Source: a virus. Taken from it: 64,000 nucleotides of DNA. Positions 11,038 through 43,178 of the stretch are shown one piece after another (the first letter of the stretch is position 1; each line of letters starts with the position of its first letter). The stretch lies in the IMG/VR virus record IMGVR_UViG_3300028800_002449. One strand, given 5' to 3'. The position numbers and the translations under genes are program-made. The notes under the pieces were generated by a model that was not told the DNA's origin, searched no databases, and saw only the letters and a program-made list of their open reading frames with translations.

Positions 11038-11586
11038 TCAGAAATGTGACCTCAAGAATCTTCTCAGATGCGTGCCCACGAGGACGGCATCTGCCTTGGG
11101 ATGAACGTCGAGGCGGCTCCTGATGTTGCTCGCCTGACAGAGCCATCCCGCGCCGTGGATCTTCCGCGCATCTTCGAAAGACTCCTTCTTCAGTCCTCCC
11201 GTCGACAAGTCGCGACTGTTCCACACTACCCTTTGACGACTCGGCATGAGGTTCATCTGTCGGAGGGAAGTCGGTTCGAGGATGCACTTCGGCATCAGCT
11301 CATAGTGTGGAACTCGTCCCACGACCAAGACGTAGTCGGCCCCGCAACCGAGAGCCGCTCGAACCTCTTCGTCGCTGTCGTGGATTCCCTTCGCGAGGAT
11401 GGGCTTGTTCGTCTGCTTCCTCGCCCTGTAGAGATGGTGGAAGGAACCACCCCACCGCGGGTCCGTATGGATCGACAGCCAGTCACCGGCTTCGCTCGCG
11501 AGGTGGAAGAGGGCTTCCCAGCTCTCCTTGCTCTCCCAGCCGAAGGGCGAGCACGTCTTCACCTCGGCGATAAGAATATGACTCAT
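11038..11586 (-). CDS. indole-3-glycerol-phosphate synthase (TrpC)-like (beta/alpha)8 barrel protein
   Basis: IAEVKTCSPFGW (the TrpC IAExK.aSPSkG motif), LSIHTDPRWGGSF, ILAKGIHDSDEEVRAALGCGADYVLVVGR; trimmed from track ORF 11038..11856, whose 5' part runs into tRNAs. Confidence 0.55.
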   Translation of the reverse strand: MSHILIAEVKTCSPFGWESKESWEALFHLASEAGDWLSIHTDPRWGGSFHHLYRARKQTNKPILAKGIHDSDEEVRAALGCGADYVLVVGRVPHYELMPKCILEPTSLRQMNLMPSRQRVVWNSRDLSTGGLKKESFEDARKIHGAGWLCQASNIRSRLDVHPKADAVLVGTHLRRFLRSHF

Positions 11587-20604: not shown

Positions 20605-20609
20605 ACTTG

Positions 20610-20844: not shown

Positions 20845-20849
20845 GTAAT

Positions 20850-20895
20850 CGCGGTGGTGGCTTCCACCGCGCCCATGATTTTCTATTTGATTTTC
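20850..20895 (+). terminator. GC hairpin (CGCGGTGG...CCACCGCG) followed by a T-rich tract; putative terminator
   Basis: 8-bp GC stem followed by CCCATGATTTTCTATTTGATTTT. Confidence 0.3.
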
Positions 20896-20924
20896 ACAGA
20901 ACCAGCCACCTGCCGATGGCGGAG

Positions 20925-20997
20925 TACCGAGGGAAGGGCTCGAACCTTCAATCTGCTGGGCCAGAACCAGCCGTCCTGCCAATTAGACCACCTCGGT
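20925..20997 (-). tRNA. tRNA-Gln(CTG)
   Basis: Anticodon arm GCTGG-TTCTGGC-CCAGC. Confidence 0.7.
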
Positions 20998-21006
20998 ATG
21001 TACTGT

Positions 21007-21077
21007 CCTCAGGGAACGATTCGAACGTTCATAGGCGGGTCCAAAGTCCGCCGTCCTGCCGTTAGACGACCTGAGGA
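21007..21077 (-). tRNA. tRNA-Gln(TTG)
   Basis: Anticodon loop CTTTGGA; paralog of the adjacent Gln(CTG). Confidence 0.6.
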
Positions 21078-21148
21078 TGTCGATGTGGATGCATCGACCC
21101 TCGTTGTCGCTCACGTCGCATGTTGATCTCCTCGTTCATTTTCATCCG

Positions 21149-21223
21149 TGGGCTGAGAGGGACTCGAACCCTCGACCGTTCGCTTAAGAGGCGACTGCTC
21201 TAATCCAACTGAGCTACCAGCCC
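21149..21223 (-). tRNA. tRNA-Lys(CTT)
   Basis: Anticodon loop CTCTTAA; T-arm GAGGG-TTCGAGT-CCCTC. Confidence 0.65.
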
Positions 21224-21365
21224 GTTCCGCTGCTTCCTCTGCTTCCTCGCGTCGATACTCCTCCGTGTACTCGTCGTAGATCTTCCTGTTGCTCGGGTCA
21301 GCCAAGAACTCTTCGATGTAGCTCGTCGCTCGGGATTTCCTCAGCTTCGTCAGCTCATCCATATC

Positions 21366-21479
21366 TCAATGCTTCTTGTCGCAGTCCTTGTCGTCGCTCG
21401 TCCACGTGCATGTCGCCGTCGTGCAGATCCTGCGCACGTAGACGACGATCGTTTCTCCATTGCAGCAGGGACATTTCAT
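21366..21479 (-). CDS. 37-aa Zn-ribbon mini-protein (MKCPCCNGETIVVYVRRICTTATC...)
   Basis: Hand-called ORF between tRNA-Lys genes; CPCC...C..C. Confidence 0.25.
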   Translation of the reverse strand: MKCPCCNGETIVVYVRRICTTATCTWTSDDKDCDKKH

Positions 21480-21484
21480 CTCGG

Positions 21485-21557
21485 TGCCCTCGGTCGGATT
21501 CGAACCGACGATTCAGCGCTTAAAAGGCGCGGGTGATGGCCGCTTCACTACGAGGGC
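21485..21557 (-). tRNA. tRNA-Lys(TTT)
   Basis: Anticodon loop CTTTTAA; D-stem GTGA/TCAC. Confidence 0.65.
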
Positions 21558-21629
21558 GAACGGATTCGCTCGCCCTGCGTTTGCTTTCTGCCAACCTCTG
21601 CTTCGTCATACTCATGTCGTTTCTTTTCG

Positions 21630-21714
21630 TGGGAGCTGAAGGACTCGAACCTTCGAAGGTCGCGATGACCGCCTGGTTTACAGCCAAGTTCTTTTGCCGC
21701 TTAGAAAAGCTCCC
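21630..21714 (-). tRNA. tRNA-Tyr(GTA), class II
   Basis: 85 nt; anticodon arm CTTGG-CTGTAAA-CCAGG; long variable arm. Confidence 0.7.
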
Positions 21715-22657: not shown

Positions 22658-23386
22658 ATGCCCCACTACAAGTACCCAAGGCCGGCAGTCACCGTCGACG
22701 TCGTCGTGTTCGGAGTGCAGCTGACAGGCGAAGAGCGAGGACTCCGCGTTTTGCTCATCCGACGGAAGAACCCGCCCTTCAAGGGCAAGCTCGCCATCCC
22801 CGGCGGGTTCCTCAACCTTGCCGAGTCGCTCGACGCCGCAGCCTTCAGAGAACTTCTGGAGGAGACTGGCATCAAGCCAGCGTACATCGAGCAGTTGTAC
22901 ACCTTCGGAGCACCCAAGCGCGACCCTCGCGAGCGCGTCGTCACCGTCTCGTACCTCACGCTCGTGAAGAGCGAGGAGCACGTGCTCAAGGCAGGCTCCG
23001 ACGCGAAGGAAGCCAAGTGGCTTCGCATCGTCCCCTCAGGTAACAGCTACTTCTTCCCGGGCGCCGAAGTCGCCCCGCAGGGCCTCGCCTTCGACCATGC
23101 CGAGATCCTAGCCAAGGGCGTCGAGCGCCTGCGAAACAAGATCACGTACACAGGCGTCGCGTTCGACCTGCTCCCCGCGGAGTTCACGATGCCACAGCTT
23201 CAGGGCCTCTACGAGATAGTCCTCGGCCGCCAGATCGACAAGGGCAACTTCCGCCGGAAGATGCGCTCGACCGGCGTCCTCAAGGCCCTCGGCAAGAAGA
23301 GCAAGGGCTCGCGAGGGCTCGACCTCTACGCCTTCGACCGCAGCAGGTACGAGAGCACCAAGAACCGCGTCGACTTCAACGTCTAG
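22658..23386 (+). CDS. NUDIX hydrolase (ADP-ribose pyrophosphatase family) with a C-terminal NrtR-like winged-helix region
   Basis: Nudix box GGFLNLAESLDAAAFRELLEETGI (Gx5Ex7REuxEExGu). Confidence 0.7.
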   Translation: MPHYKYPRPAVTVDVVVFGVQLTGEERGLRVLLIRRKNPPFKGKLAIPGGFLNLAESLDAAAFRELLEETGIKPAYIEQLYTFGAPKRDPRERVVTVSYLTLVKSEEHVLKAGSDAKEAKWLRIVPSGNSYFFPGAEVAPQGLAFDHAEILAKGVERLRNKITYTGVAFDLLPAEFTMPQLQGLYEIVLGRQIDKGNFRRKMRSTGVLKALGKKSKGSRGLDLYAFDRSRYESTKNRVDFNV

Positions 23387-23395
23387 GAGGCCCCC

Positions 23396-24124
23396 ATGGC
23401 GATGGCACACAAAGCTCCTACGGCTCACTACAAGCGGACCAACTACATCTCGTTGCACGCCGTCGAGCAGCTGCGACAGCGGATCGGAAAGAAACACGAT
23501 CTTTTCAGCCGAGACAACAGCGACCTGTCCAACGCCATCGACGAGGCCGTATGCATCGGACTCAAGAAGCCCAACGTCGAGAAGTTCGAGTACGAGGGGA
23601 AGCCCAACCTCGGCGTCGACATCTCCGACTTCTTCGGCTTCCCTCTCAAAGCCGTCGTCGCGAAGAACGAGAAGGAAAACTCGCCGTATCGAGCAGCCGT
23701 CGTCACAATCCTCACCGCCAACATGTCCATGAAGAACGACAAGAGCGGTGCATCCTTCGCGGACGCGATCAGCCCCGAGGTCAAAGCCGCTCTCCGCGCA
23801 GCCATCGAGCAAAAGGACGTGCCTGCCCCCGAGCCCCGTGAAGCTGTCGGTGCTGCTGCACCGCCGAAAGCCATCCCGGCTCGCGCGATCGTCGAATCCA
23901 AGCCTTCGAAGATCTCAACACGCGACGTCTCGCCCGATCGCCGCCTCATCACCTACGTCAAGCCCGGCTCGACAGATCTCGTCATCGAAGAGTTCGCTGC
24001 CCCGGGCGACCTGCGCAACCGCATCTTCGATCTCCATCAGAAGGGAACGCCCCTCGCTGAGATCTCCGTCTGGAAGCCTTCCAAGGCCTCCATCGCCATC
24101 GCGCTCGATTTCGAAGAAGGCTGA
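23396..24124 (+). CDS. hypothetical protein (242 aa) between the NUDIX and NadV genes
   Basis: ORF track; co-oriented and tightly spaced. Confidence 0.5.
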   Translation: MAMAHKAPTAHYKRTNYISLHAVEQLRQRIGKKHDLFSRDNSDLSNAIDEAVCIGLKKPNVEKFEYEGKPNLGVDISDFFGFPLKAVVAKNEKENSPYRAAVVTILTANMSMKNDKSGASFADAISPEVKAALRAAIEQKDVPAPEPREAVGAAAPPKAIPARAIVESKPSKISTRDVSPDRRLITYVKPGSTDLVIEEFAAPGDLRNRIFDLHQKGTPLAEISVWKPSKASIAIALDFEEG

Positions 24125-24149
24125 TCGCTCTAGGAAAGGAAGATCCTCC

Positions 24150-25586
24150 ATGAACAACAACTACGATCCCATGGCGAACCTCATCGCCGACTCCGACAGC
24201 TACAAGTTCGGCCACTGGCTCATGCTGCCCGACGGCACCACGCAGACGCACGCGCACATGCTCTCCCGCGGCGGGCGCTACGGCCGCACCACTCAGTGGG
24301 GCATGCGCCCCATCACCATCCGCATGGCCCAGTGGGCGGAACTCACCACGAAGGAGCGCATGCTCCACGTCGAGGAGTGCGCCGACTTCGCCCCCGACCA
24401 CGGGCTGCCCTTCAACATCGACGACTGGACGTACATCGCCACCGACCTCGGCGGTCGCATCCCCATGCGCATCCGCGCCGCCAAGGAGGGCGCCTCCATC
24501 CCCGTCCGCAACGTGCTTTCCACCTACGACTCGACGGACAAGCGCGTGCCGTGGATCACCGGCTGGTTCGAGACGCAGTTCGTCCGCGCCTGGGCCGGCA
24601 CCACCGTCGCCACCAAGTCGTTCAACGGCGTCAAGGTCTTCTGGGACTTCCTCAAGGAGACCTCCGACGACCCGGCGGGCGAGATCGACTTCAAGCTGCA
24701 CGACTTCGGCTCGCGCGGCGTCACCTGCCCGCAGCAGGCCGCCTTCAACGGCGCCGCCCACCTCGTCAACAGCAAGGGCAGCGACACCGTCATCGCCATG
24801 CTCTACGCCAAGAACGTCTACGGCACCAAGGAGAAGGTCGCCGGCTACAGCATCCCCGCGCTGGAGCACTCGTCGGTCATCCCCTTCAAGGACCAAGAGG
24901 AGTCCTTCATCCGCTTCATCGAGAAGTTCAAGGACCCGAAGTTCAAGTACCTCTCGGCGATCTCCGACACGATCGACATCTACGACTGCGTCGAGAACAT
25001 CTGGTGCGGCACGATGCTCGACCTCGTGAAGGCCAGCGGCAAGACGATCGTCATCCGCCCCGACTCGGGCAAGGCCCCCGTCATCATGCCCGACCTCCTG
25101 CACATCATGGACAGGAAGATCGGCTGCACCACCAACGGGAAGGGCTTCAAGGTCCTGCCGCCCTACTACCGCTTCATCTGGGGCGACGGCAACAAGACGG
25201 AGGACGACATCAGGGACATGCTCATGTCGATCAAGCAGCACGGCTTCTCGGCGTCGAACATGGTCTCGGGCATGGGCGGCGGCTTGCTCCAGCTCGTCGA
25301 TCGCGACATGCAGATGTTCAAGTTCATGGTCTCCGCCATGAACATCAACGGCTCCTGGAGGGAGGTCAAGAAGACGCCGAAGACCGACGTCCACAAGGTC
25401 TCCCGAGCCGGACGGCTCGACCTCATCAAGCGCGAGGGCCAGTACGAGACCGTCAACCTGACGGCAGACCAGGCGTTCCACCCGCTCACCGAGCTTCACA
25501 CCATCTTCGAGGACGGCAAGATCGGCAAGACCTGGGACCTGGACGAGAGCCGCGCCGAGTCCCGTCGCGCCCTCCTCGAAACGTAG
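24150..25586 (+). CDS. nadV: nicotinamide phosphoribosyltransferase (NadV/NAMPT family)
   Basis: About 478 aa; NAMPT-type N-terminus DSYKFGHW and family-typical length; ribosome-binding site AGGAAAGGAAG; start re-called inside track ORF 23748..25586. Confidence 0.8.
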   Translation: MNNNYDPMANLIADSDSYKFGHWLMLPDGTTQTHAHMLSRGGRYGRTTQWGMRPITIRMAQWAELTTKERMLHVEECADFAPDHGLPFNIDDWTYIATDLGGRIPMRIRAAKEGASIPVRNVLSTYDSTDKRVPWITGWFETQFVRAWAGTTVATKSFNGVKVFWDFLKETSDDPAGEIDFKLHDFGSRGVTCPQQAAFNGAAHLVNSKGSDTVIAMLYAKNVYGTKEKVAGYSIPALEHSSVIPFKDQEESFIRFIEKFKDPKFKYLSAISDTIDIYDCVENIWCGTMLDLVKASGKTIVIRPDSGKAPVIMPDLLHIMDRKIGCTTNGKGFKVLPPYYRFIWGDGNKTEDDIRDMLMSIKQHGFSASNMVSGMGGGLLQLVDRDMQMFKFMVSAMNINGSWREVKKTPKTDVHKVSRAGRLDLIKREGQYETVNLTADQAFHPLTELHTIFEDGKIGKTWDLDESRAESRRALLET

Positions 25587-25589
25587 GCG

Positions 25590-25934
25590 ATGGAAGAAGG
25601 TGAGAATAGTTCGAAAGCCTCCGTCGCATCCGCGGCGGCGGCTTCCGATCCCAACGACCTCAAGGGCTGCATCACGTTCTTGGTGCTCCCCGTGGTCATG
25701 CTCGTCGACGGCGTCTGCCTGTCCTCGCTGTGGGGATGGTTCCTGACGCCGCTCGGGCTGCCCAAGATCGGCGTCGCACACGGCGTGGGGCTCATGCTCC
25801 TGCGGAAGTTCTTCACCGTCGGCAGCACGAGACAGGGAAGCCTCAAGAAGGACTACGTCCTCTCGATGCTCCAAGTCAAAATCCTCGCCATGCTCCTTGG
25901 CTACGTCATGTACAGGATCATGATCCGACCATGA
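25590..25934 (+). CDS. small membrane protein
   Basis: Two hydrophobic helices. Confidence 0.45.
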   Translation: MEEGENSSKASVASAAAASDPNDLKGCITFLVLPVVMLVDGVCLSSLWGWFLTPLGLPKIGVAHGVGLMLLRKFFTVGSTRQGSLKKDYVLSMLQVKILAMLLGYVMYRIMIRP

Positions 25935-26362
25935 TCAAGCGTCTCGACGTCGCGCATCGGATGCTGCCGGCAGCTCTCAGCATCCTCACTCTCTTGGCGA
26001 CAGCTCTGCTCTTCATCTGCGACGTGAAACCTTCCCTCTTTCCGCCCCGCTCACATGACGTGTTGGCCGCCACACCCCTCGCGCTCATCGCCGTCGCGTA
26101 CCTCGTCTATCAAGCCATCCGAGTCGTAGGGCTTCTAGAGCTTGTGAAAGCGATCCTCCTCGCCGTCGCCTTCCTCCTGTGGGCTGCGAACCAGCTGTGG
26201 TCGGAACTGCCAGGAGCGCAGCTCTTGAACGATCTGGCCATCGCGCTGTTCGTGCTCGACATGTTCCTCGTCATCATCGGATGGCCATCGTCCTCGCCCG
26301 ACGAGGCCTTCGGTGAGACTTATGCCGAACCGCGCTCGCGATCTGGAGGAAAAGACACATGA
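25931..26362 (+). CDS. integral membrane protein (about 143 aa)
   Basis: ATGA overlap with the upstream gene; four hydrophobic segments. Confidence 0.5.
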   Translation: MIKRLDVAHRMLPAALSILTLLATALLFICDVKPSLFPPRSHDVLAATPLALIAVAYLVYQAIRVVGLLELVKAILLAVAFLLWAANQLWSELPGAQLLNDLAIALFVLDMFLVIIGWPSSSPDEAFGETYAEPRSRSGGKDT

Positions 26363-26784
26363 AGAACGAGATGAGCAACTTCAACCTGCACGTCACCGCC
26401 AACACGACCCATCAGTTCAAGCTCGCGATGGAGATCGCGTTCTTCATCGAGCAAGAGCTGTTCGTCTCGAAGAAGCACTACGAGGTCGCTCGATCCTGGA
26501 AGGTCGAAGACGGATGCCTCGTCCTGTCGAAGTTAGGCGAGGGAGACTCGCTCGCTGAAAATAGGCTCACCCTCTTGCCGATGCCCCTCGACCATGATCA
26601 AGTCATCAACTTCGCATGCGGCTGGCTCCTTTCGGACGAGGCCAAGGCTCTCAAAGGCCCCGATCCAGCCATCGACGATGAAACGAAGGGAGCCTTCCTC
26701 GTCATGGCAACCAACGCCATAGTCAACAGGCGACACGAAATCGTCAGGATCATGCCGATCTGGACATCGCCCGTGACAGCATGA
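26359..26784 (+). CDS. hypothetical protein (141 aa)
   Basis: ATGA overlap with the upstream gene. Confidence 0.5.
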   Translation: MKNEMSNFNLHVTANTTHQFKLAMEIAFFIEQELFVSKKHYEVARSWKVEDGCLVLSKLGEGDSLAENRLTLLPMPLDHDQVINFACGWLLSDEAKALKGPDPAIDDETKGAFLVMATNAIVNRRHEIVRIMPIWTSPVTA

Positions 26785-27032
26785 GCACTGTCGAGATCCA
26801 GCCTCAAGACGTCCAGGACGGCGTCGTGATCGCCTCAGAAGGTCATCCGGAATGTCCAGAGCCCTGCGGCTGCGACGAATCGAACGCGATGCGCGATCTC
26901 CTCGAATGCATCATCCAGTACGACTCCGACGTCAACCCCTGCGACCCTGAACACTGTCAAGGAAAGTGCGCCTTCTGCCAGGCGCGCGTCCTGCTCGAAC
27001 GTCTCGAAGAGAAAAGGAAGCTGCGAAGATGA
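26781..27032 (+). CDS. small Cys-rich protein (83 aa)
   Basis: CPEPCGC ... CDPEHCQGKCAFC. Confidence 0.45.
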   Translation: MSTVEIQPQDVQDGVVIASEGHPECPEPCGCDESNAMRDLLECIIQYDSDVNPCDPEHCQGKCAFCQARVLLERLEEKRKLRR

Positions 27033-27553
27033 GCGAGAAGACGCTCCTGGAGGCTCGCAAGGAGACGTTCGAGGCTGCACTCTTCGGCAAGGGGAAGAAG
27101 TGTCCGTGCTGCGACCGTTTCGTGAAGGTCTACAAGCGCAAGTTCAACAGCGCGATGGGAAGAGCGCTCATCATTCTCTACCGCCACTACAACAGCCCGA
27201 TGGGGATGAAGCTGGGACCCGAGGAGTGGGTTCATTTCCCGACGCTGCTCATGGGAAAGGGTGCTCAGAGGTCGGACGAGGGCAAGCTCGCGATCTGGGG
27301 GCTCGTCGAAAAGCTCTCAGGCCTCCGTGATGACGGCTCGAAACGGAACGGCTTCTACAGGATCACAGATCTCGGACGGAAGTTCGCTCGAAGCGAGATC
27401 GACCTTCCTGCACACGCCTTCCTCTACTACGGCGGCCAAGTGCTCGGGTTCTCCGACGGCGACAAGTACCCGAAGGCGCTCGTGAGGATCGGCGACGTCT
27501 TCGGGAAGTCGTTCAACTATCGCGAGATGATGGAGGCTCCCTATGGCGAGTAA
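27029..27553 (+). CDS. hypothetical protein with a CPCC zinc-ribbon motif (about 174 aa)
   Basis: Start MSEKTLLEAR overlaps the upstream stop. Confidence 0.5.
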   Translation: MSEKTLLEARKETFEAALFGKGKKCPCCDRFVKVYKRKFNSAMGRALIILYRHYNSPMGMKLGPEEWVHFPTLLMGKGAQRSDEGKLAIWGLVEKLSGLRDDGSKRNGFYRITDLGRKFARSEIDLPAHAFLYYGGQVLGFSDGDKYPKALVRIGDVFGKSFNYREMMEAPYGE

Positions 27554-27830
27554 CAGCACGAAGCATTTGGTCATCGTCCTTTCCATCATCAGCGTATTCG
27601 GCGTCATCATAGCGTCGGCAGCCTTCTACGCTACCGACAGAAACAAGGTCGTCGCCGTCGGAGAAAAGCATCCCGACGGATGCACTGACTCCATCGTTCT
27701 CATCGTCGTCGACACCTCAAACGAACACTACTCGTGTCTAGATCCTCTTCAAAAAATAGAGGTCTACCCAGCAGGCATGAACAAATATTCAAGCCCCATG
27801 GCACTCGTCAAGTGTGTCTGCCCTAAGTAG
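27543..27830 (+). CDS. small membrane-anchored protein
   Basis: N-terminal transmembrane segment IVLSIISVFGVIIASAAFY. Confidence 0.4.
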   Translation: MASNSTKHLVIVLSIISVFGVIIASAAFYATDRNKVVAVGEKHPDGCTDSIVLIVVDTSNEHYSCLDPLQKIEVYPAGMNKYSSPMALVKCVCPK

Positions 27831-27852
27831 TTTTTATCTTGCTTAAGATAAA
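27826..27852 (+). promoter_or_regulatory. conserved promoter element TTTTTATCTTGCTTAAGATAAAC
   Basis: Matches TTGCTTAAGATA from the 12343 promoter; inverted repeat TTATCTT/AAGATAA. Confidence 0.4.
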
Positions 27853-27874
27853 CCTGAGAAGTTAGGATACATCC

Positions 27875-28060
27875 ATGGCCTTCACCTGCGCCGAGTGCCA
27901 CGACAAGACGAAGTGCAAGTACCACGTCCCTCCGACCTACCCGATGGGTGAGCACCCGTCGTGGCCGGGCGTGAAGGTCTACCTGCCTGCCATCTTCACG
28001 AACATCTCCGTCGGTCGATGCGAGGACTGCAAGAAGTCGAGGCCGTGTGTTGACTGCTAA
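27875..28060 (+). CDS. small Cys-rich protein (61 aa)
   Basis: CAECHDKTKC ... CEDCKKSRPCVDC. Confidence 0.4.
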   Translation: MAFTCAECHDKTKCKYHVPPTYPMGEHPSWPGVKVYLPAIFTNISVGRCEDCKKSRPCVDC

Positions 28061-28253
28061 GACAAGAAACCAGATCTACTCCATGCTCATCGGAGCTACG
28101 GTCTCCGGCTTTACGTCATACGAAGGTGGCAGTTTCTTAGTCGCTGTCATCGTCGGAGGCGGCGCAGGCTTCCTCGTGGGTCTGGTGTGGTTCAAAGATG
28201 AGCCCATCAAGAATAAAGGCCGTCGTGCCTCGCAAAGAGAAGACGGAGCTTGA
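28047..28253 (+). CDS. small membrane protein (68 aa)
   Basis: Gly-zipper transmembrane segment VIVGGGAGFLVGLVW. Confidence 0.35.
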   Translation: MLTAKTRNQIYSMLIGATVSGFTSYEGGSFLVAVIVGGGAGFLVGLVWFKDEPIKNKGRRASQREDGA

Positions 28254-28457
28254 GCAGGTTGAGCAGCTCGAAGCGTTGATGGACGAACAGGTCCCGAGCG
28301 CTCTTCAACGTGCTGCGTCCGACTCCAGGAAGACGTCAGCCACATGGGTCGGCTCGGGCGACTTCCTCGTGCTCCTCGTCTGCGACGCCACGTCGGCCAT
28401 CAAGCCCACCCAGAAGCGCTACACCTGCCGGATCCTCGACCTCAAGGAGAAGTGAAA

Positions 28458-29675
28458 GTGGCAACTAGATCTGAAAGTGGCAACTCAACTCTTCAAGAGA
28501 TCCTCCTCACCGGCAAGACCGACCTATACGTCGTCGCCACCGGAGCGGGGACGAACCTGCTCACGAGCCTCTGGGCCACCCCCGGTGCCAGCGCCTACCT
28601 CAAGGGATTCCACTTCCCCTACGACACGGCCGAGACCGACTCGTTCCTCGGCTTTCAACCGGCGGCCTACTGCACCGAGAAGACTGCGATCTTGATGGCC
28701 ACCGAGGCCTACGTCAGGGCTCGTCGCCTCCACTACCTCCGCGGGGAAGATCGCAACGCCGCCACCGTCGGGCGGAAAGCCATCGGGCTCGCCGTGACGG
28801 CCTCCGTCGCTTCCATGACGGAGCATCGTGGAGAGCACCGTGCCTTCATCGCCACCGTCAGCAACCACACGCCTCCGACCTTCACCTCAAAGAAGATCGG
28901 TCTTCAGAAGGGCGTCGGTCTCTTCACGCGCATGAGTGACGACGCAATCGTCTCACATGCAGCCATGGAAGAGTTGTCCCAGACCCTGCGCGACGAGGCC
29001 TACTCGGTGCCCAACTACACTGAAGATCAGGTCATAGAGATGCTTTTCGAGCATCCATATCCTCTCGGGCACGAAGGCTACAGCCTCCGGAACGACAAAG
29101 TCGTCTTCATCCCTGGCAACTTCAATCCTCTGCATCAATGTCACCAGTCGATGGGACAGACGTTGAGGTCGCTCTACGGCTACAAGCCCGTCTACACGAT
29201 CTGCGTGGACCCCCCGCACAAGCCCGCCCTCGCCCTCGTCGACATGCTCGACAGGGTCGCGATGTTTCGCGCGCTCGCGCCACATGCCGCTCTCCTCTTC
29301 ACCAGGAAGGATCCTCTCTTCATCGACAAAATGAAGGCCCGCCCCAGCTCGACGTGGGCCGTCGGCGGCGACACGCTCGATCGCCTCCTCGATCCGAAGT
29401 GGGGCCCGTCTACGGACGAGGTCTGCGACGTCATCAAGGAGACCGATTCGACCATCTACTTGTTCCCTTCGAAGCACGGTGAAGCTTCCATCGATGCGCA
29501 CTCCATCTTCAGGAAATACACGTCCGACAAGCTTGCCCAACTCATGCACAAGAAGATCCTTGGCGTCGACGTGGATCTTCCTGAGATCCGCTCCTCCGCC
29601 ATCAGGGCAGCCGCGATGAACCCGCCACCCTTCGACATCCACGAGCTGGACGCCGGCTCCGAACCCCGGAGATGA
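28458..29675 (+). CDS. fusion protein: CinA-C/PncC-like (NMN amidohydrolase fold) N-domain plus NMN/NaMN adenylyltransferase-like C-domain
   Basis: N-terminal ATGAGTNLLTSLWATPGASAYLKGFHFPYDTAE resembles the PncC AESCTGGLLA..LT..PGSSAYFLGGVVAYSNEAK block. C-terminal FIPGNFNPLHQCH carries the HxGH nucleotidyltransferase motif. GTG start after GAAGTGAAA. Confidence 0.6.
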   Translation: MATRSESGNSTLQEILLTGKTDLYVVATGAGTNLLTSLWATPGASAYLKGFHFPYDTAETDSFLGFQPAAYCTEKTAILMATEAYVRARRLHYLRGEDRNAATVGRKAIGLAVTASVASMTEHRGEHRAFIATVSNHTPPTFTSKKIGLQKGVGLFTRMSDDAIVSHAAMEELSQTLRDEAYSVPNYTEDQVIEMLFEHPYPLGHEGYSLRNDKVVFIPGNFNPLHQCHQSMGQTLRSLYGYKPVYTICVDPPHKPALALVDMLDRVAMFRALAPHAALLFTRKDPLFIDKMKARPSSTWAVGGDTLDRLLDPKWGPSTDEVCDVIKETDSTIYLFPSKHGEASIDAHSIFRKYTSDKLAQLMHKKILGVDVDLPEIRSSAIRAAAMNPPPFDIHELDAGSEPRR

Positions 29676-31957
29676 CGACCACCCCCGATCGCGCTCAGAT
29701 CATCGTCGCCGAGCGCGACCAGAAGACGAGACAGAACACGTCGGACTCGCCGGTCCGCGGTCGGTGGTACCTCGTCAAGAACGGCGACAAGGACGACGAC
29801 CTCGACGTCGACAAGATCGAGAAGGATGTCGACGACTTCTCATACCGCACGTCGGTCACCGAGGAAGACGTAGTTGCAGCTGAGAAAGCCGGCGGTTGGA
29901 TCGGATGCGTCACCCACGTCGGCAGCAACTACGTGGAGGTCAAGGGTCCCTCAGATAGCACCGGGATGTTCGTCACGCGCATCCACTACGAGAACTTCTG
30001 GCGCCGATGCTCTCCCATAGACGACTCCGACCTCATCATCGACGGGAAGATCTCCCGCTACCAAGACCAGACACGCAAGCTCATGGCCGAGGTCAAGGCC
30101 CTCACGGCCAAACTCGGCGTAGCCCCTCGGCAGGAGATCGCAGACGGGTCAGAATCGGAGGTCAAGGCGATCTCGATCCGAAGCTCCGAGCCCGTCGAGG
30201 AGTACAAGAAGGCCCTCATCAAGGCCGAGGAGAAGACACTCCCCGACCTCTTCGAGAAGATCGAGGAGTCGAACGCGATGATGAGCACGTGGATGAAGGC
30301 CAAGATCATCCCGCTCGAAGCCGAATCGGAAGCGCTCAAGGACACCGTCGGGCTCGTCAAAGATCGCATCTTCAGCGTCGAGCTTTACGCAGGCCTCGTC
30401 GAGAAGGTCGTGCGCGTGCGCGACGGCAAGCCGGCCGAAAACGACGCGCAGGTTCACCTCATGCAGCGCCGCGCCTACATGGACGAGGAGTGCCTCGTCG
30501 GCTACGAGACGGGCGGCATGGACTACCAGAACATCGAAGACTTCGACAAGTGGCTCTGCAAGCCGGCCAACTTCCAGCGTCTGCTTCCCTACCCCAAAAC
30601 CTTCATCGCCTTCCAAGTCCGCCGTGAGAAGAAAGAGCGCGAGGCCTCCTCGTGGGGCGAGTACGTCCAGGTCATGGCTCAGGAGAAGGCTGACGAGTCG
30701 ACATACCTCTACGTCCGGAACGGTGAGCAGCTCTATCGCATCAAGACGAAGATCGAGTTCGAGGAGCAGCTCTTCCCCGACACCAACAACAAGATCTTCT
30801 CCAGCAGCAAGCTGTGGGCGAACATCTTCATGAACACCGTCAAGGACATCATCAGCGACGAGGAATTCCAGGGGAAGCTCGAAGACTACCTGGAAGACCA
30901 GAAGCGTCTGAAGAAGATCCCCAAGAAAGATCGGTGGCATTCAAGTCAACACGACGACCCTCGCGAGCGCTACCACCCGCTCACGCAGGACAACGTCTAC
31001 TACGACGACATCATGGCCGTGCTCAACGCCGAGAAGAAGAAGCACAACCGCCTCGTGCTCGTCATGCAGGGCCTCCTCGACCGATCGCCTGTCCTCCATC
31101 CACACCCACCCTGGCAGCTGTGGACGCACGAGGGGTTCAACGCAGCCTTCAAGCTCGTCTACGACGGCACGAGGGCTCTGTCGGCCGGAGACAAGCCCGA
31201 CTTCGAAGCGTATCGCGCGAAGCTCAACGCTCATCTCACGACAGGATCCGTGACCGTCGGTCAGGAGATCTCGTGGCTCCGTCGCGAGGCCGAGCGAGTC
31301 AACCGCGAGAGAGAAAACAGCCCTCACCGTCACCCGTCCGACCGCGAGTACAATCTCTATCGACCATCACACGATCCTGGTCCCGGCAAGCTCGCCATCG
31401 TCGACAGGTACTCGGAGAGCAAGCGAGCTTGCACCTACCGATGGGTGCGCAAGAACCGTCACTACCCCTACGAAAAGGACGTGAACACGTCTCTCACGAC
31501 CGGCGAAGAGAACCTCCTGAACGTCGACGCATACAAGCCCGGCGACTTTCACGTCTTCTTCGACGACCCCCGTACTCGACTCGAATACCTGAGGTGGGCT
31601 CCGATCCTCCTTGAGGCCGAGGAGTGTCATGCGGGCAACCGCAAGATCAAGCCTTGCAAGAGGCTGCCACCCGTCCAGCGTCATCCCAAGCCCGTCGACC
31701 CTCAGATCGATCCGCGACCCGCCGATCTCGACTTCAAGGAGAAGCCGCCGAAGCCCCCCATCGAGGACAAGTACCTCGGCAAGCGCGCCACCATCAACTT
31801 CGACTTCGAGACGAGGGCGAACGACAAGTTCAAGAAGGGCGAACTCGTCATCATCACCAGCTACCACAGGCGAAAAGTCGACGTCACTTCCGCCAAGGAC
31901 AAGGACAAGCGCTGCCATCACCTCGAACTCAACTGGATCACCCTCACCGGAGAATGA
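29672..31957 (+). CDS. large hypothetical protein (761 aa), translationally coupled to the PncC-NMNAT fusion
   Basis: ATGA overlap at 29672; no recognisable catalytic motif; coiled-coil and Lys/Pro-rich C-terminal region. Confidence 0.55.
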   Translation: MTTTPDRAQIIVAERDQKTRQNTSDSPVRGRWYLVKNGDKDDDLDVDKIEKDVDDFSYRTSVTEEDVVAAEKAGGWIGCVTHVGSNYVEVKGPSDSTGMFVTRIHYENFWRRCSPIDDSDLIIDGKISRYQDQTRKLMAEVKALTAKLGVAPRQEIADGSESEVKAISIRSSEPVEEYKKALIKAEEKTLPDLFEKIEESNAMMSTWMKAKIIPLEAESEALKDTVGLVKDRIFSVELYAGLVEKVVRVRDGKPAENDAQVHLMQRRAYMDEECLVGYETGGMDYQNIEDFDKWLCKPANFQRLLPYPKTFIAFQVRREKKEREASSWGEYVQVMAQEKADESTYLYVRNGEQLYRIKTKIEFEEQLFPDTNNKIFSSSKLWANIFMNTVKDIISDEEFQGKLEDYLEDQKRLKKIPKKDRWHSSQHDDPRERYHPLTQDNVYYDDIMAVLNAEKKKHNRLVLVMQGLLDRSPVLHPHPPWQLWTHEGFNAAFKLVYDGTRALSAGDKPDFEAYRAKLNAHLTTGSVTVGQEISWLRREAERVNRERENSPHRHPSDREYNLYRPSHDPGPGKLAIVDRYSESKRACTYRWVRKNRHYPYEKDVNTSLTTGEENLLNVDAYKPGDFHVFFDDPRTRLEYLRWAPILLEAEECHAGNRKIKPCKRLPPVQRHPKPVDPQIDPRPADLDFKEKPPKPPIEDKYLGKRATINFDFETRANDKFKKGELVIITSYHRRKVDVTSAKDKDKRCHHLELNWITLTGE

Positions 31958-32745: not shown

Positions 32746-33522
32746 ATGAACATCACCCGCGTATCCATCAGCGGTGCCGACGACGCCATCGATCCGATCG
32801 ACCTCCTGCGGCTCTCGGTCGAGTTCCCCTTCGTCGAGTGGGGGATCCTCTACTCAGAGAAGCGTCAAGGGACGCCTCGATACCCGTCGGCAGAGTGGCG
32901 CGAGAACCTCATCGGCCTGCTGCTCAACACGGTCAAGGGGAAGAACCTTCACCTGGCGCTCCACCTCTGCGGCAAGGCCTCTCGCGACGTCTTCGAGGGC
33001 AGGGACAGCAAGTGGTTCGCGAGGAAGGACTTCCACGCACCCTACGAGCGCGTCCAGCTGAACGGCTTTTCACCCTACAAGGACAAGCTGAAGTACCTGC
33101 CACTCAACAGCGACCCGTACGACAAGGATCAGCTCGCCAACCTCTTCAAATTCTGCCCGTGCGAGTTCATCGTCCAGTGTGCCGACGAGGAAGAACTCAA
33201 GATCGTCGACGACTTCGCCGTCAAGAACAACCTCCAGTTCCTGAACGCGCTCTACGATCCTTCCGGCGGCAGGGGCCTCAGGAACGTCGAATGGCCGCAC
33301 CTGCCGACCAGGCAGGTCAACGTCGGCTATGCGGGCGGCATCGGTCCCGACAACGTCTCCCAGATCGTCTCCGACATCATGGGCAAGCCGAAGACGGACA
33401 AGATGGAGGCCACCTGGATCGACATGGAGAGCCGCATCCGGTCCAACGAAGACAAATTCGACCTCGCGCTCGTCAGAGAAGTCCTCGTCGCCTGCATGAA
33501 GCTCGTCGGAGGTGAGAAGTGA
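32746..33522 (+). CDS. phosphoribosylanthranilate isomerase (TrpF)-like (beta/alpha)8 barrel protein
   Basis: ITRVSISGADDAI...FVEWGIL, VQLNG, NVGYAGGIGPDNVSQIV align with the TrpF blocks ICGIT..DA..A...GAD..GF, VQLHG and ILAGGLNPENV. Confidence 0.55.
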   Translation: MNITRVSISGADDAIDPIDLLRLSVEFPFVEWGILYSEKRQGTPRYPSAEWRENLIGLLLNTVKGKNLHLALHLCGKASRDVFEGRDSKWFARKDFHAPYERVQLNGFSPYKDKLKYLPLNSDPYDKDQLANLFKFCPCEFIVQCADEEELKIVDDFAVKNNLQFLNALYDPSGGRGLRNVEWPHLPTRQVNVGYAGGIGPDNVSQIVSDIMGKPKTDKMEATWIDMESRIRSNEDKFDLALVREVLVACMKLVGGEK

Positions 33523-34070
33523 AGGACCGCATCTGCATGTACCCCGGCACGTTCGGTCCGATCACGCTCGGCCACGAGTGGATCATCGCGGAGTCTCTCA
33601 AGATCTTCGACTACGTCCACGTCCTCATCGCCGAGAACAAGGCCAAGAAGCCGATCTTCAGCATGAACGAACGCCTCTCCATGATCGAGAGCGTCACCAA
33701 CAAGTACGGCGGCAAGGTCGAGGTCGTGAAGAGCCACGACGTCTACACTGTGCAAGCAGCCAAGATCCTGAAGGCCACACACATCGTCCGAGGTATCCGC
33801 AGCGGCATCGACTTCGACTACGAGCGCAGCGTCGATCTGCTCAACAGGGACATCCACAACGCCCTTCGTGAAGACGAGTCAGCCAGCCATGGCGTGTCCA
33901 CCATCTACATGACTCCTCCACGACACCTGGCCGAGGTCAGCTCTTCCATGGCCATGAGCCTCGTAGGGTTCAAAGGGTGGGAGACCGTCATCAAGAACTA
34001 CGTCTCTCAGCCTGTTTTCGAAGCCATCAAGAAGGCCTATGATGGCGGCCACCTCGCCAACCGACCATGA
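33519..34070 (+). CDS. CoaD-like (phosphopantetheine adenylyltransferase family) nucleotidyltransferase
   Basis: MYPGTFGPITLGH (PPAT signature YPGSFDPIT.GH) and VRGIRSGIDFDYERSVDLLNR (PPAT IRGLR...DFEYE...MN). Confidence 0.6.
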   Translation: MKDRICMYPGTFGPITLGHEWIIAESLKIFDYVHVLIAENKAKKPIFSMNERLSMIESVTNKYGGKVEVVKSHDVYTVQAAKILKATHIVRGIRSGIDFDYERSVDLLNRDIHNALREDESASHGVSTIYMTPPRHLAEVSSSMAMSLVGFKGWETVIKNYVSQPVFEAIKKAYDGGHLANRP

Positions 34071-34705
34071 ACAACCAAGCGACCATCGAGACCCTCAGGA
34101 GGTCCTGGAACAAGATCTCCTGGAACCGACCCGATCACGGATGTCTCATCGGCTTCGACGCAATCCTCGGCCGATATCAACGGCCAGGTCGGCACTATCA
34201 CGACCTTCGACACCTCGTGGAGTGTCTCGAACATTCTGAGATCGACAAGGCACGGAACCCGACGGCAGTGCGCCTAGCGCTATTCTTCCACGACTACATC
34301 TACGACACCGAAGTCCATCACGGCAACGAGGAGGCCAGCGCCGACTTCGTCTCGCTCTACGTCGCGACCTGGCTCCAGGATCCTTCCGACGCCTACACCG
34401 CCTGCCATCACATCCTCGCGACAGAGAAGCACAAGGTCGGAACCGTGCCCGAGACCATCCAGGACAGCAAGCTCGTCATCGACTGCGACTTGTCGATCCT
34501 CGGACGCCCCATGGATCGCTACGCGCAGTACGAGAGCGACATCCAGCTCGAATACAGCCACGTCCCGAGCCAGATCTTCAAAGAGGCCAGACGCACCATC
34601 ATGCTCGGCTTCCTCAACCGCAAGGACATCTACTTCAACGAGAGCTTCCGCGAGCGCTACGACAAACAGGCTCGCAAGAACATCTCCGTCTACTGGTCGC
34701 GATGA
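34067..34705 (+). CDS. HD-domain phosphohydrolase
   Basis: GRHYHDLRH ... LALFFHDYIYD (H..HD...D metal-binding pattern). Confidence 0.5.
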   Translation: MNNQATIETLRRSWNKISWNRPDHGCLIGFDAILGRYQRPGRHYHDLRHLVECLEHSEIDKARNPTAVRLALFFHDYIYDTEVHHGNEEASADFVSLYVATWLQDPSDAYTACHHILATEKHKVGTVPETIQDSKLVIDCDLSILGRPMDRYAQYESDIQLEYSHVPSQIFKEARRTIMLGFLNRKDIYFNESFRERYDKQARKNISVYWSR

Positions 34706-35258: not shown

Positions 35259-35529
35259 TCCGGGCGAGCTGGTTCATCGTGTTCCCGAGCCGCGAGACCT
35301 CCTCGCTGTAGAGCTTGTAGAAGCGCCGCTGGTCAGCTGCAAGGACCTCCTCCACGCGAGGCTTCCTCTTGCGCTTCTTCTTGACAACGTCCTTGGCTGC
35401 ATCCCTCGAAGCCACGACCTTGCCCAACTCTTTCACGACGGCCTTGGGGGGCTCGCTCGACGGCGCTGGGGGCGCGCTCGGCACTGACACGCCCTTCGAT
35501 TTAAGCACCGGCTTGGGCACGTCAATCAC
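35251..35529 (-). CDS. small basic protein (92 aa)
   Basis: ORF track; convergent with the plus-strand operon. Confidence 0.4.
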   Translation of the reverse strand: MIDVPKPVLKSKGVSVPSAPPAPSSEPPKAVVKELGKVVASRDAAKDVVKKKRKRKPRVEEVLAADQRRFYKLYSEEVSRLGNTMNQLARIR

Positions 35530-36319
35530 TCACGTTCATGTTGCGACGCGGCATGTACATCTTCAGGGCCGGCACCGAGCATAGCTCGGGAAGATGTCCC
35601 TCGGCGAACACAGCCGCCGTCAGGGAGCCTCCGAAGCAGCAGCCGGTGTCGATGCCCATAGTCGTCACGAAATCGACCGGCTTCAGGATAAGCGGCTTCA
35701 TCTCGTCGTGTACGATGTGACCGTACACGACGGATTCGGGCCCCTTCCACGTCTCGACCCAGTAGACGGCGTTCGGCGGCGTCTCCATCGGGTCGCCCGT
35801 CGAGGCGTACTCGCCCGTATCCTTGTCGGTCGTCCTGCACCTGACGAGCATCCGCGGGTCGATCTCATCGATCGGCTTGTCGGTTGGGATCCCAGCGTGC
35901 GTGACGAGCCAGGGAACCCCATCGTGCTCGAACCGCAGGTAGTACGGCAGCGCGGCCAAGAAGCTCCGATCTTCATCCGAGAGCTGATCGTGCTCAGCTT
36001 TCCTCGCGTCGGTGAACCTCATCGGGTTCTTGTACCCGAGCTGACTCTTCTTCTTCGCCTCGTGTCGAGCCCACCTCACGTGCTTCTCGTCGTGGTTGCC
36101 CATGACCGCCTCATAGCCGTTCTTCCGCACGTGCTCGACGACGCCGGCCGAATACGGGCCGCGGTCGACCAGATCGCCTGCGCAGATCAGACGATCTGAA
36201 GGCTTGGGCTGGAGCTTCTCCAGGAGCTGCTTGAACTCTTCCAAGCACCCGTGGATATCTCCCACGACGATGGTTCGCATGAAGCTCGCGATCGTCACAT
36301 CATCTTGGATGAAAGTCAA
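35522..36319 (-). CDS. PPP-family metallophosphatase (lambda phosphatase/ApaH-like Ser/Thr phosphatase)
   Basis: VVGDIHG ... GDLVDRG ... GNHD motifs. Confidence 0.7.
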   Translation of the reverse strand: MTFIQDDVTIASFMRTIVVGDIHGCLEEFKQLLEKLQPKPSDRLICAGDLVDRGPYSAGVVEHVRKNGYEAVMGNHDEKHVRWARHEAKKKSQLGYKNPMRFTDARKAEHDQLSDEDRSFLAALPYYLRFEHDGVPWLVTHAGIPTDKPIDEIDPRMLVRCRTTDKDTGEYASTGDPMETPPNAVYWVETWKGPESVVYGHIVHDEMKPLILKPVDFVTTMGIDTGCCFGGSLTAAVFAEGHLPELCSVPALKMYMPRRNMNVSD

Positions 36320-41766: not shown

Positions 41767-42219
41767 CTACTCCTGCCTCAGGCTTCCGACGATCGCCGGA
41801 CCCAGCGCTGCAACGATCTCAGCAGCCTTCTCGACGTACTCACACGAGATCGTCAGACCTTCAGCGGTCTGCGGCGTCATCTGCACGTAGAACGTCATGA
41901 TGGCGTTCACGAGCTGCTGACAGGCAGCATCCGGAATCCCCTTTTCAGCAGCCCACTTGGCCAGGCCCAACATCATCGCCATCGAGTCCTTGAGCACGAT
42001 GAAGCAAGCCTTCGCCACGTACTCCTTGCCGATCTCGGACGAGGGGCACTTCGTGTAGAACGTGGAGATCTCGTTGACGATCGTGGTCCGGTCCTCAGAC
42101 TTCAGACCCTTGCCGTGACCCCACGTGTCCAGCTCTATCAGTCGTGTCGCGGCAGGATGCGAGAGAACCCGACGCACGATCTCGATGGCCTCCTCAGGCG
42201 TAGGTTCAATCGGCATCAC
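41767..42219 (-). CDS. hypothetical protein (150 aa)
   Basis: ORF track. Confidence 0.5.
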   Translation of the reverse strand: MMPIEPTPEEAIEIVRRVLSHPAATRLIELDTWGHGKGLKSEDRTTIVNEISTFYTKCPSSEIGKEYVAKACFIVLKDSMAMMLGLAKWAAEKGIPDAACQQLVNAIMTFYVQMTPQTAEGLTISCEYVEKAAEIVAALGPAIVGSLRQE

Positions 42220-42967
42220 TCACCTCCGGCAGATCAATGAAGATCTCCTTCGCGTACTCGCTCACGTCGTCCGGATAGCCCATCGGATTGCATACGACGC
42301 GCGTCTGACCCACCTCGTAGTCGAACTTGCTGTGAGTGTGACCATGCAGCCAGAGCGCGGGCTTGCAGCTTTCGATGATGTCGTCGCACGGGAAGACGAA
42401 GAAACGGTTCAAGGGAGACGACCTGTACTTCGGTCCCACGCTCTTCTGCGAAGGCAGATGATGGGTCAAGACGACGTCACCCTCCCTCACGTTCTTGAGG
42501 AGGAAATCATGCGTCCGTCGATTTTCCTCGTAGACCCACGGCTTGAACTTCTTGATATGGCTGAAGTCACCCAGGTACCTCTCGTACTCGACGTTCGTCG
42601 GGTCGTCGGCGAACCAAAGAGTGCCTCCGAGGAACCTCCGCCCCTTGTAGACCTGGACGTGCTCAACGTCGGGCTGGATCATCTTCACGTTCGCAGGGAA
42701 GGAAGCCTCCATCTTGAGCAGATCTACCAGCGCTAGATCGACGTTGCTCCCGTAGAACTCGTGGTTCCCTGGCAAGTAGAGGACCAACTCAGCCTTCTTC
42801 GAAAAGGCCTTCCAGATCTCTCCCCTCTCCTCCGCACTGAACATCTTCAACGTGAGGATGTCACCGACGAGCGCCAACACGTCGCAGTCCGGCACCTTCA
42901 CCACTGGCCGCATGTGCCATGGATGCCAGAACTCAAGGTGCATGTCTGACGCCGGGTGGATCTTCAT
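42206..42967 (-). CDS. calcineurin-like metallophosphoesterase
   Basis: ASDMHLE ... GDIL ... PGNHEF ... LTHHLP ... HGHTH. Confidence 0.6.
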   Translation of the reverse strand: MKIHPASDMHLEFWHPWHMRPVVKVPDCDVLALVGDILTLKMFSAEERGEIWKAFSKKAELVLYLPGNHEFYGSNVDLALVDLLKMEASFPANVKMIQPDVEHVQVYKGRRFLGGTLWFADDPTNVEYERYLGDFSHIKKFKPWVYEENRRTHDFLLKNVREGDVVLTHHLPSQKSVGPKYRSSPLNRFFVFPCDDIIESCKPALWLHGHTHSKFDYEVGQTRVVCNPMGYPDDVSEYAKEIFIDLPEVSDAD

Positions 42968-42974
42968 CGACCCC

Positions 42975-43178
42975 TCACTTGCGTCTGCGCTTGATGACAG
43001 CGTCGGGCACGTAGATCTGGGTGTCCCCTGACTTGAAGACGTAGCCATCCCAGGGCGCGGGCTTGGTCACCCATCCCCCCATGACGTTCACGGAGATCTT
43101 ATCTCCCGCGAGAACGCGCTCGCATTTGCGTGCGATGTTCTTCCACTCAGCTGTCGTGACATCGTCGATGGTCGGCAC
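42975..43178 (-). CDS. hypothetical protein (67 aa)
   Basis: ORF track. Confidence 0.4.
   Translation of the reverse strand: MPTIDDVTTAEWKNIARKCERVLAGDKISVNVMGGWVTKPAPWDGYVFKSGDTQIYVPDAVIKRRRK

Follow-up and report, generated by a model that had tools for sequence, protein, structure and literature searches.

TrpF-like and TrpC-like barrel proteins in a large-phage genome fragment: two uncharacterised families very probably serving chemistry other than tryptophan synthesis

In the tryptophan pathway, TrpF (PRA isomerase, PRAI) and TrpC (indole-3-glycerol phosphate synthase, IGPS) catalyse consecutive reactions. A survey of viral NAD and ADP-ribose systems (PMC9503650) makes no mention of a TrpF-like barrel, and our literature search found nothing relevant on phage PRAI-like genes. 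The phage NAD+ reconstitution pathway NARP2 consists of NAMPT plus NMNAT (bioRxiv 10.1101/2024.02.11.579819, PMC13464706). Here we compare with these systems a 64-kb stretch of viral DNA (hereafter the window), part of a contig of ~260 kb, that encodes one TrpF-like and one TrpC-like protein. Both belong to known superfamilies and represent uncharacterised subfamilies with altered active sites.

By its features, the window is best taken as part of a large phage. The GC content is ~60%, coding periodicity is clear (usual codon-position GC 0.58/0.38/0.85), and ARAGORN finds 35 minus-strand tRNA genes spanning 10627-21714. The window's TrpF-like protein is on record on contigs of ~260 kb, while known phages showed no nucleotide similarity to the window DNA. 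Pfam searches of 40 larger ORFs recovered SNF2 and RecD2-like helicases, a PolB-type exonuclease, Dam, Metallophos phosphoesterases and NAD genes. In an attempt at host assignment, a 761-aa marker gene matched phages of Erythrobacter, Mesorhizobium, Flavobacterium and Tunturiibacter. The features that concern us are as follows.

10958-11033, tRNA-Asp, beside the TrpC-like ORF in the tRNA array
11038..11586, minus strand, TrpC-like 'mini-IGPS' barrel, ATG start, 182 aa
11590..11663, minus strand, tRNA-Val(cac), from ARAGORN and the sequence, its end 3 nt before the TrpC-like ATG
22658..23386, plus strand, NrtR-like Nudix and winged-helix protein, start of the NAD island (Pfam NUDIX and NrtR_WHD; NCBIfam NF050029, E 1.3e-48)
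23748..25586, plus strand, NAMPT, nicotinamide phosphoribosyltransferase (Pfam NAPRTase and NAMPT_N, aligning from residue 144; NF006629, 403.6 bits)
28344..29675, plus strand, 443-aa protein with a C-terminal NMNAT-like nucleotidyltransferase domain (Pfam CTP_transf_like, residues 256-422; weak NMNAT equivalog matches)
32746..33522, plus strand, TrpF-like (beta/alpha)8 barrel, ATG to stop, 258 aa
33519..34070, plus strand, CoaD-type (pantetheine-phosphate) adenylyltransferase (TIGR01510, 130.2 bits against a cut-off of 103.3; Pfam CTP_transf_like)
34067..34705, plus strand, phosphohydrolase, 212 aa (phrog_19425 'phosphohydrolase', E 9e-19)

The true start of NAMPT probably lies downstream of 23748; the orthologue in a related locus (L174) has 479 aa. 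The phosphohydrolase was without a match in Pfam, NCBIfam and PDB.

Both barrel ORFs are real, intact and under purifying selection. The sequence blocks by which a preliminary description of this DNA had recognised them, NVGYAGGIGPDNV and VQLNG for the TrpF-like protein and IAEVKTCSPFGW for the TrpC-like protein, were found in ORFs 32746-33522 and 11038-11586, respectively; the former ORF holds QVNVGYAGGIGPDNV and 'ERVQLNG', and the latter contains ILIAEVKTCSPFGW. Public gene callers agree on the TrpF-like ORF (P0001, identity 100%). Codon-position GC is genome-typical in both genes (0.58/0.36/0.88 for the TrpF-like and 0.57/0.45/0.74 for the TrpC-like gene), and comparison with their closest orthologues, in L175 and L006 respectively, gives a dN/dS of ~0.10 for the TrpF-like and ~0.15 for the TrpC-like gene. 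These values are rough, as dS is close to saturation. The TrpC-like gene does lie inside a tRNA array, where it fills the gap between tRNA-Asp and tRNA-Val in a series of 35 tRNA genes.

That these barrels derive from TrpF and TrpC, as had been suggested, is borne out by Pfam searches in which both exceeded the gathering cut-offs, each over part of its length. The TrpF-like protein scored 23.1 bits against PRAI (PF00697; cut-off 22.7, E 6.9e-5), with a match that spans residues 137-246 only and covers profile positions 91-190 of 193, and the TrpC-like protein scored 32.2 bits against IGPS (PF00218; cut-off 27, E 8.3e-8), with residues 5-99 aligned only. NCBIfam equivalogs gave a different picture, with 15.3 bits for TrpF against a cut-off of 215, and scores far below cut-off for every TrpC model (best 37.3 against 258). 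The TrpF-like protein gave no full-length match to curated TrpF profiles, and a precomputed PF00697 match was present in 36 of the 120 TrpF-like relatives listed. At the family level, the TrpF-like profile matched PDB TrpF at E 0.04 and in the C-terminal half only, and the TrpC-like profile matched T. maritima IGPS over its full length (E 3.6e-16). AlphaFold modelled the TrpF-like protein, from a 51-sequence alignment, with eight strands and a pLDDT of 87.6, and the TrpC-like protein with a pLDDT of 95.7. The former is a (beta/alpha)8 barrel whose nearest structures are TrpF; the latter is an IGPS-type barrel, its IGPS scores lying far above its GlpP-like scores.

The alignable part of the TrpF-like protein runs from beta4 to beta8, and its N-terminal half is without alignment to PRAI profiles. 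By hhalign and HMMER, D171 aligns to Asp379 of E. coli TrpF, the general acid on beta6 (Asp126 in T. maritima), and this position is Asp in 50 of 51 family sequences. The same programs align AGGIGPDNV and WIDMES(G/R) to the TrpF phosphate-binding motifs; G197 and G198 of the loop after beta7 are invariant, and S229 in the beta8 loop, present in 50 of the 51 sequences, is followed by G (40) or R (9). In contrast, the general-base Cys of beta1 (Cys7 in T. maritima, Cys260 in E. coli) is replaced: the strand closes with the motif 'I-(T/S)-G-A-D-D', and all 51 sequences have Thr or Ser where TrpF has its catalytic Cys, the register of this assignment being set by motif and predicted strand and not by profile alignment. 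The sole invariant Cys of the family is C75, on beta3. Invariant across the 51 sequences are D12, E31, W32, R45, P47, W51, H73, C75, R102 and Q104, as well as N106, S173, W224, D226, E228 and R232; the new polar set among them comprises D12, E31, W32, R45, H73, C75, Q104, N106, E228 and R232.

The TrpC-like protein can be mapped onto S. solfataricus and T. maritima IGPS residue by residue. In S. solfataricus numbering, E8 corresponds to Glu51, K10 to Lys53, K66 to Lys110, E104 to Glu159, N123 to Asn180, R125 to Arg182 and S153 to Ser211, and all seven are invariant without exception among 44 sequences. Glu210 has as its counterpart A152, which is Ala in all 44 sequences ('lcqaSNI' aligned to T. 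maritima 'VVAESGI'). The protein begins four residues before beta1, with IGPS aligning from residue 40-48 onward, and is without the ~45-residue N-terminal helical lid of IGPS; the model predicts no helix after beta4 and none after beta7. New invariants are H40, D42, W45, H69, R91, W122, K133, R141, W148 and Q151. Both proteins keep the standard phosphate-binding sites and the acid/base residues of the parent, and each has lost at least one residue or structural element that the parent reaction requires, the beta1 Cys in one case and Glu210 in the other being replaced.

The TrpF-like family is large and mainly phage-borne. When 1.84 billion cluster representatives were searched exhaustively with its profile, 4,734 members were found at E<=1e-3 and 2,557 at E<=1e-30; the family is bounded and distinct from canonical TrpF, not part of a TrpF continuum. 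The viral contigs of IMG/VR with a member number at least 123, and many are 100-500 kb in length. The family is also represented among published huge phages, by a single Microcystis phage, and within a Polyangiaceae MAG in a region resembling a prophage. The family motifs are GADD, VEWG, PRYP, HLCG, R.QLNG, DPSGG.G, GYAGGI.P.NV and WIDMES, and the window protein carries them. In a check for domain fusions, the extra tails of longer members were uninformative. PHROGs returned no match for the TrpF-like protein, the TrpC-like protein or three other TrpF-like members, and no meaningful structural neighbour was found in BFVD.

The TrpC-like family has another distribution. Its closest relatives, 75-86% identical to the window protein, lie on short metagenomic contigs and a sister phage contig. 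The next tier is a tight family of ~180 aa at 55-65% identity in CPR bacteria and DPANN archaea, found in at least 113 CPR/DPANN species genomes and borne by Saccharibacteria, Nomurabacteria, Taylorbacteria, Paceibacterota, Peribacteria, Woesearchaeota, Pacearchaeota and Nanoarchaeota. These mini-IGPS proteins share a set of motifs (AEVKT.SPFG, HTD..W.GS, ILAKGIH, LVVGR.P, EP, WNSRDL, CQASN, LVG) that is present in the window protein. Public records label them 'hypothetical protein' or 'indole-3-glycerol phosphate synthase', and we found no published function for mini-IGPS or short IGPS of CPR/DPANN in the searchable literature. Among phages the family is scarce, with no tblastn match in 50,697 phage records and two IMG/VR contigs only. 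Across 80 CPR/DPANN loci there was no conserved neighbour and, within 6 kb, no match to TrpA, TrpB or TrpE; the sole trp-type matches there were two to E. coli TrpGD, which are probably amidotransferase domains. The arrangement beside tRNA-Val recurs in L006, and tRNAs also lie near the copy in L092. A tRNA-linked role for the TrpC-like protein was considered and rejected, tRNAs being near the gene in two lineages, with none in L091 and none in cellular genomes.

The preliminary description had placed the TrpF-like gene in an NAD island. The island itself is real, with the NrtR-like Nudix, NAMPT and NMNAT-like genes 7-10 kb upstream of the TrpF-like gene, but the gene coupled to the latter proved to be a CoaD equivalog and not an NMNAT. 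The start of the CoaD-like gene overlaps the TrpF-like stop codon, and the start of the phosphohydrolase gene overlaps the CoaD-like stop codon; this overlapping trio is kept in relatives at 82% and 64% identity, the TrpF-like/CoaD-like overlap being seen in L174 and L175. Although it lies downstream of the NAD island, the TrpF-like gene thus has its translational coupling with the CoaD-type adenylyltransferase and phosphohydrolase genes, not with those of the island. Phosphohydrolase homologues lie at most 10 kb from TrpF-like genes in four further loci (L051, L084, L088, L078).

Near TrpF-like genes of other phages, NAD and PRPP genes do recur: NMNAT-like, NAMPT, NrtR and ThyX genes in L015, Prs-like and NAMPT-like genes in L050, and NMNAT-like and Prs-like genes in L043. 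Around the TrpF-like gene of a megaphage locus (L176) are PurE, PyrB, PyrD and PyrC-like genes, and what the four loci have in common are genes for the production or consumption of PRPP or ribose-5-phosphate. Only a few NAD/PRPP cases were found, one of them (L015) in a distant relative of the window phage. The pyrimidine cluster of L176 raised the idea that the TrpF-like protein might be an OMP decarboxylase. This identity was rejected, since the family has no invariant Lys and the Asp-x-Lys-x-x-Asp signature of OMP decarboxylase cannot be present. All-against-all clustering of ORFs within 10 kb found no conserved TrpF-like neighbour, the best cluster reaching 14 of 80 viral loci, and a Pfam census of 132 immediate and 132 further neighbours returned scattered replication, recombination and RNA-repair families only. 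The neighbourhood signal of the family is weak. From example sequences only, the top neighbour clusters were taken as polymerase-like and ribonucleotide-reductase-like.

Might the two proteins nonetheless be a genuine, divergent PRA isomerase and IGPS that boost host tryptophan synthesis in infection? We regard this as very unlikely. The preliminary description was right that the window lacks the remaining tryptophan enzymes: phmmer searches with E. coli TrpA, TrpB, TrpGD and TrpE found no match at E<=10 among six-frame segments of at least 40 aa throughout the 64 kb (other trp genes could be located on the remainder of the ~260-kb contig), the same searches were null in four related phage loci, the Pfam scans of the 40 larger ORFs held no trp family, and no trp genes were found in the loci of TrpF-like relatives. 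Both proteins do pass Pfam gathering cut-offs, but their equivalog scores of 15 and 37 bits compare with cut-offs of 215 and 258. In its retention of the acid Asp and of a phosphate site, the TrpF-like protein suits a PRA isomerase, whereas the catalytic Cys is replaced in 51 of 51 sequences and the family stood separate from canonical TrpF in the exhaustive search. Likewise, almost the whole IGPS catalytic set is retained in the TrpC-like protein, which leaves some likelihood of genuine IGPS activity, yet all 44 sequences have replaced Glu210, there is no lid to form the anthranilate pocket, and the CPR/DPANN family lacks TrpA, TrpB and TrpE within 6 kb, with the two TrpGD matches as the only trp-type signal. 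Also in favour of the tryptophan reading, an N-terminally truncated S. solfataricus IGPS is reportedly still active. A truncated IGPS chain of 222 residues (2c3z) is in the PDB. Since features that define the parent enzyme are altered in each barrel, both are best read as having a role other than in tryptophan synthesis, in line with the recruitment to other chemistry originally proposed. More specifically, the sequences are best read as pointing to chemistry on phosphorylated pentose derivatives.

The parent enzymes' consecutive reactions invite a further reading, in which the TrpF-like protein isomerises a non-anthranilate ribosylamine-5-phosphate and the TrpC-like protein cyclises or decarboxylates the product, for example in NAD or ADP-ribose metabolism. 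We think such a two-step pathway unlikely. The preliminary description's pairing of the proteins as consecutive enzymes fared poorly, with the genes 21 kb apart and never adjacent. The two families hardly overlap in their distributions, which gives no support to a TrpF-to-TrpC pair, and the proteins probably do not form one. Both genes are present in the window lineage, that is, the window contig and JBAIGA010000045.1 (P0006, P0124), and in one distantly related lineage only, represented by IMGVR_UViG_3300042731_004976, where they lie ~21 kb apart as in the window and are accompanied by NrtR, NAMPT and an NMNAT-like gene. That two divergent lineages of phage carry both genes may point to a functional link. 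On the other hand, the lineages share these genes (47% identity for NrtR, 43% for NAMPT and 32% for the NMNAT-like protein) and a similar spacing; common descent therefore explains the co-occurrence, which can be inherited and not selected. Moreover, among the at least 123 viral contigs with a TrpF-like gene, only one is known to carry a TrpC-like gene, the TrpF-like motif scan, which recovered 83 other stretches, did not recover the contig of the other viral TrpC-like carrier (L092), and no TrpF-like gene was present within 6 kb in any of 80 CPR/DPANN loci. Pairwise identities are star-like and do not single out a number of transfers. It is highly improbable, in turn, that one or both barrels are non-enzymatic ligand-binding or regulatory proteins, such as a sponge for a ribose-phosphate immune signal or a GlpP-like RNA-binding regulator acting on the tRNA-array transcript. 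Phage proteins that bind NAD-derived signals exist, and the TrpC-like gene sits within the tRNA array here and in L006 and near tRNAs in L092. Yet the invariant residues coincide precisely with the acid/base residues used in catalysis by IGPS and TrpF and with phosphate-binding loops, the L091 copy has no tRNAs nearby, the CPR/DPANN homologues have neither tRNA nor regulatory context, and GlpP-like scores are far below those for IGPS.

We thus favour the reading in which both genes encode functional enzymes, independently acquired and re-tooled from tryptophan-pathway barrels, neither of which makes tryptophan. That the proteins are functional, serve non-tryptophan ends and form separate families is very probable; taken together with the chemistries proposed below, the explanation is somewhat more probable than its negation, while any specific chemistry, considered alone, is tentative and on balance doubtful. 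For the TrpF-like enzyme, the substrate would be a 5-phosphoribosyl compound with an anionic substituent held by several of the conserved arginines, its ring opened by acid catalysis from D171 with D12, C75 or E31 as a candidate new base, and the conversion might be an isomerisation (aldose-ketose or Amadori-type) or another reaction. The enzyme may feed or drain PRPP-dependent nucleotide and cofactor salvage and, in the window phage, may work with the coupled CoaD-type adenylyltransferase and phosphohydrolase. The mini-IGPS would use Lys/Glu catalysis to condense, dehydrate or decarboxylate a substrate that resembles a 1-substituted 1-deoxyribulose-5-phosphate but is not CdRP, and its gene presumably came to the phage by horizontal transfer.

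A bolder version, to which we give a low probability, is that both barrels mark unrecognised ribose-phosphate chemistry. If it were true, the TrpF-like family (~4,700 clusters) would represent a new isomerase of pentose phosphates or phosphoribosyl compounds that supplies or recycles substrate for PRPP-dependent reconstitution of NAD+ and nucleotides during infection, possibly in counter-defence against NAD-depleting immunity, and the mini-IGPS would be a core salvage step of CPR/DPANN organisms captured by some large phages.

We regard the finding as a well-defined lead, not yet as a discovery. Its unexpected part is the conservation of the mini-IGPS across domains together with its presence in a phage tRNA array. 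With 55-65% identity across domains, the mini-IGPS is among the more conserved proteins that CPR bacteria and DPANN archaea have in common, yet we found no function assigned to it. To our knowledge, tryptophan synthesis is not expected of these organisms, and a substrate for the mini-IGPS would close a gap in metabolic models of ultra-small symbionts. Should the TrpF-like protein be an enzyme of nucleotide or NAD+ salvage, a large phage family absent from PHROGs could be assigned a part in the metabolic arms race. Both proteins would also be natural TrpF and TrpC scaffolds re-tooled for new chemistry, and a 182-residue barrel without two outer helices is of interest for enzyme evolution and design.

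Set against the known systems, the TrpF-like family shares with TrpF (EC 5.3.1.24) the beta4 'QL(H/N)G', beta6 'D..GG.G..W', beta7 'AGG(L/I).P.NV' and beta8 'D..SGV' motifs and the general-acid Asp. It differs in its length (225-260 aa against ~200 aa), in some 10 new invariant polar residues in beta1-beta4, in the Ser/Thr in place of the beta1 Cys, and in being a phage-borne, bounded family of its own without trp context. NARP2 offers a partial likeness, in that the window has NAMPT, NMNAT-like and NrtR-like Nudix genes and similar genes lie by the TrpF-like genes of L015, L050 and L043. However, NARP2 as described needs no barrel isomerase, the window's TrpF-like gene is coupled to a CoaD-type enzyme, and most TrpF-like genes lie away from NAD genes. 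The TrpC-like protein has the equivalents of E51, K53, K110, E159, N180, R182 and S211 of IGPS/TrpC (EC 4.1.1.48) and the beta8 Gly, but has 182 aa against ~250 aa, lacks the N-terminal helices and those after beta4 and beta7, has Ala for Glu210, has no trp neighbours and is found in CPR/DPANN and a few phages. While the window copy, unlike those of CPR/DPANN, resides in the tRNA array of a ~60% GC phage and has phage-like codon usage, it is a full-length member of the CPR/DPANN mini-IGPS family, with the same length and the same invariant residues.

Upstream of the TrpF-like gene, on the same strand of the window, lies what is, judged by sequence, a NARP2-type NAD+ salvage island, and immediately downstream is a putative CoaD gene:

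22658-29675, + strand: NAD island genes, namely an NrtR-like protein that combines Nudix and winged-helix domains, NAMPT, and a protein of 443 aa whose C-terminal domain is NMNAT-like
33519-34070, + strand: CoaD (pantetheine-phosphate adenylyltransferase) equivalog, scoring above the curated NCBIfam cut-off

Translational coupling ties the putative CoaD gene to both its neighbours, the TrpF-like gene and a phosphohydrolase gene (34067-34705), and this trio is kept in the related loci L174 and L175. Several unknown ORFs are interspersed among the island genes. The NAMPT ORF as listed encodes 612 aa, but because some 140 surplus N-terminal residues overlap the preceding ORF, its true start is probably further downstream. 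Between the NMNAT-like and TrpF-like genes, a position that is invariant in this phage lineage, lies a gene (29672-31957, +) for a 761-aa protein that had no family match but is 40-42% identical to counterparts in Erythrobacter phage vB_EliS-L02, Mesorhizobium phage Cp1R7A-A1 and the IMG/VR locus L032.

The TrpC-like gene is tightly packed within the tRNA array. Its ATG (11586, - strand) lies 3 nt past the 3' end of tRNA-Val(cac) (ATG and tRNA together span 11584-11663), and its stop codon is separated by a 4 nt gap from tRNA-Asp on the - strand, so that any Shine-Dalgarno sequence would have to fall within the tRNA. The sister phage retains this layout (L006, 9923-10003). This arrangement suggests an mRNA that would be either leaderless or freed via tRNA processing. 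The exact protein is absent from the public protein collection, where the best match is 86%, and thus gene callers may have overlooked the ORF on this contig. Other ORFs in the array include one (16916-17749, -) that has no Pfam match and a flat codon-position GC (0.45/0.47/0.46), unlike the remaining genome; it may have been inserted recently from a foreign source or belong to a mobile element. Another (13444-14079, +) has a weak thaumatin-family match (E 2.8e-5) under the gathering cut-off.

Two Metallophos phosphoesterases are also encoded in the window:

35522-36319, - strand: first phosphoesterase, similar to the bacterial Pnkp phosphatase module and ApaH/PrpE
42206-43048, - strand: second phosphoesterase

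As genes for Metallophos, RNA ligase, RtcB and Ro60 proteins occur close to TrpF-like genes in other phages too, there are hints of an RNA-repair neighbourhood around these genes. On some other contigs, nucleotide or NAD genes lie nearby. On a megaphage-like contig (L176, 6427-11671), the TrpF-like gene, whose stop codon is overlapped by an unknown 243-aa ORF, is flanked by PurE on one side and by a PyrB, PyrD and dihydroorotase-like run on the other; the phage seems to carry a gene cluster for de novo pyrimidine and purine synthesis. On two further phage contigs, adjoining Prs-like and NAMPT-like genes are found 1.4 kb downstream of the TrpF-like gene (L050, 10001-14393), and NMNAT-like and Prs-like genes occur within 10 kb (L043, 3-5331); these sets may represent modules of the NARP1 (Adps/Namat) or Prs/NAMPT type.
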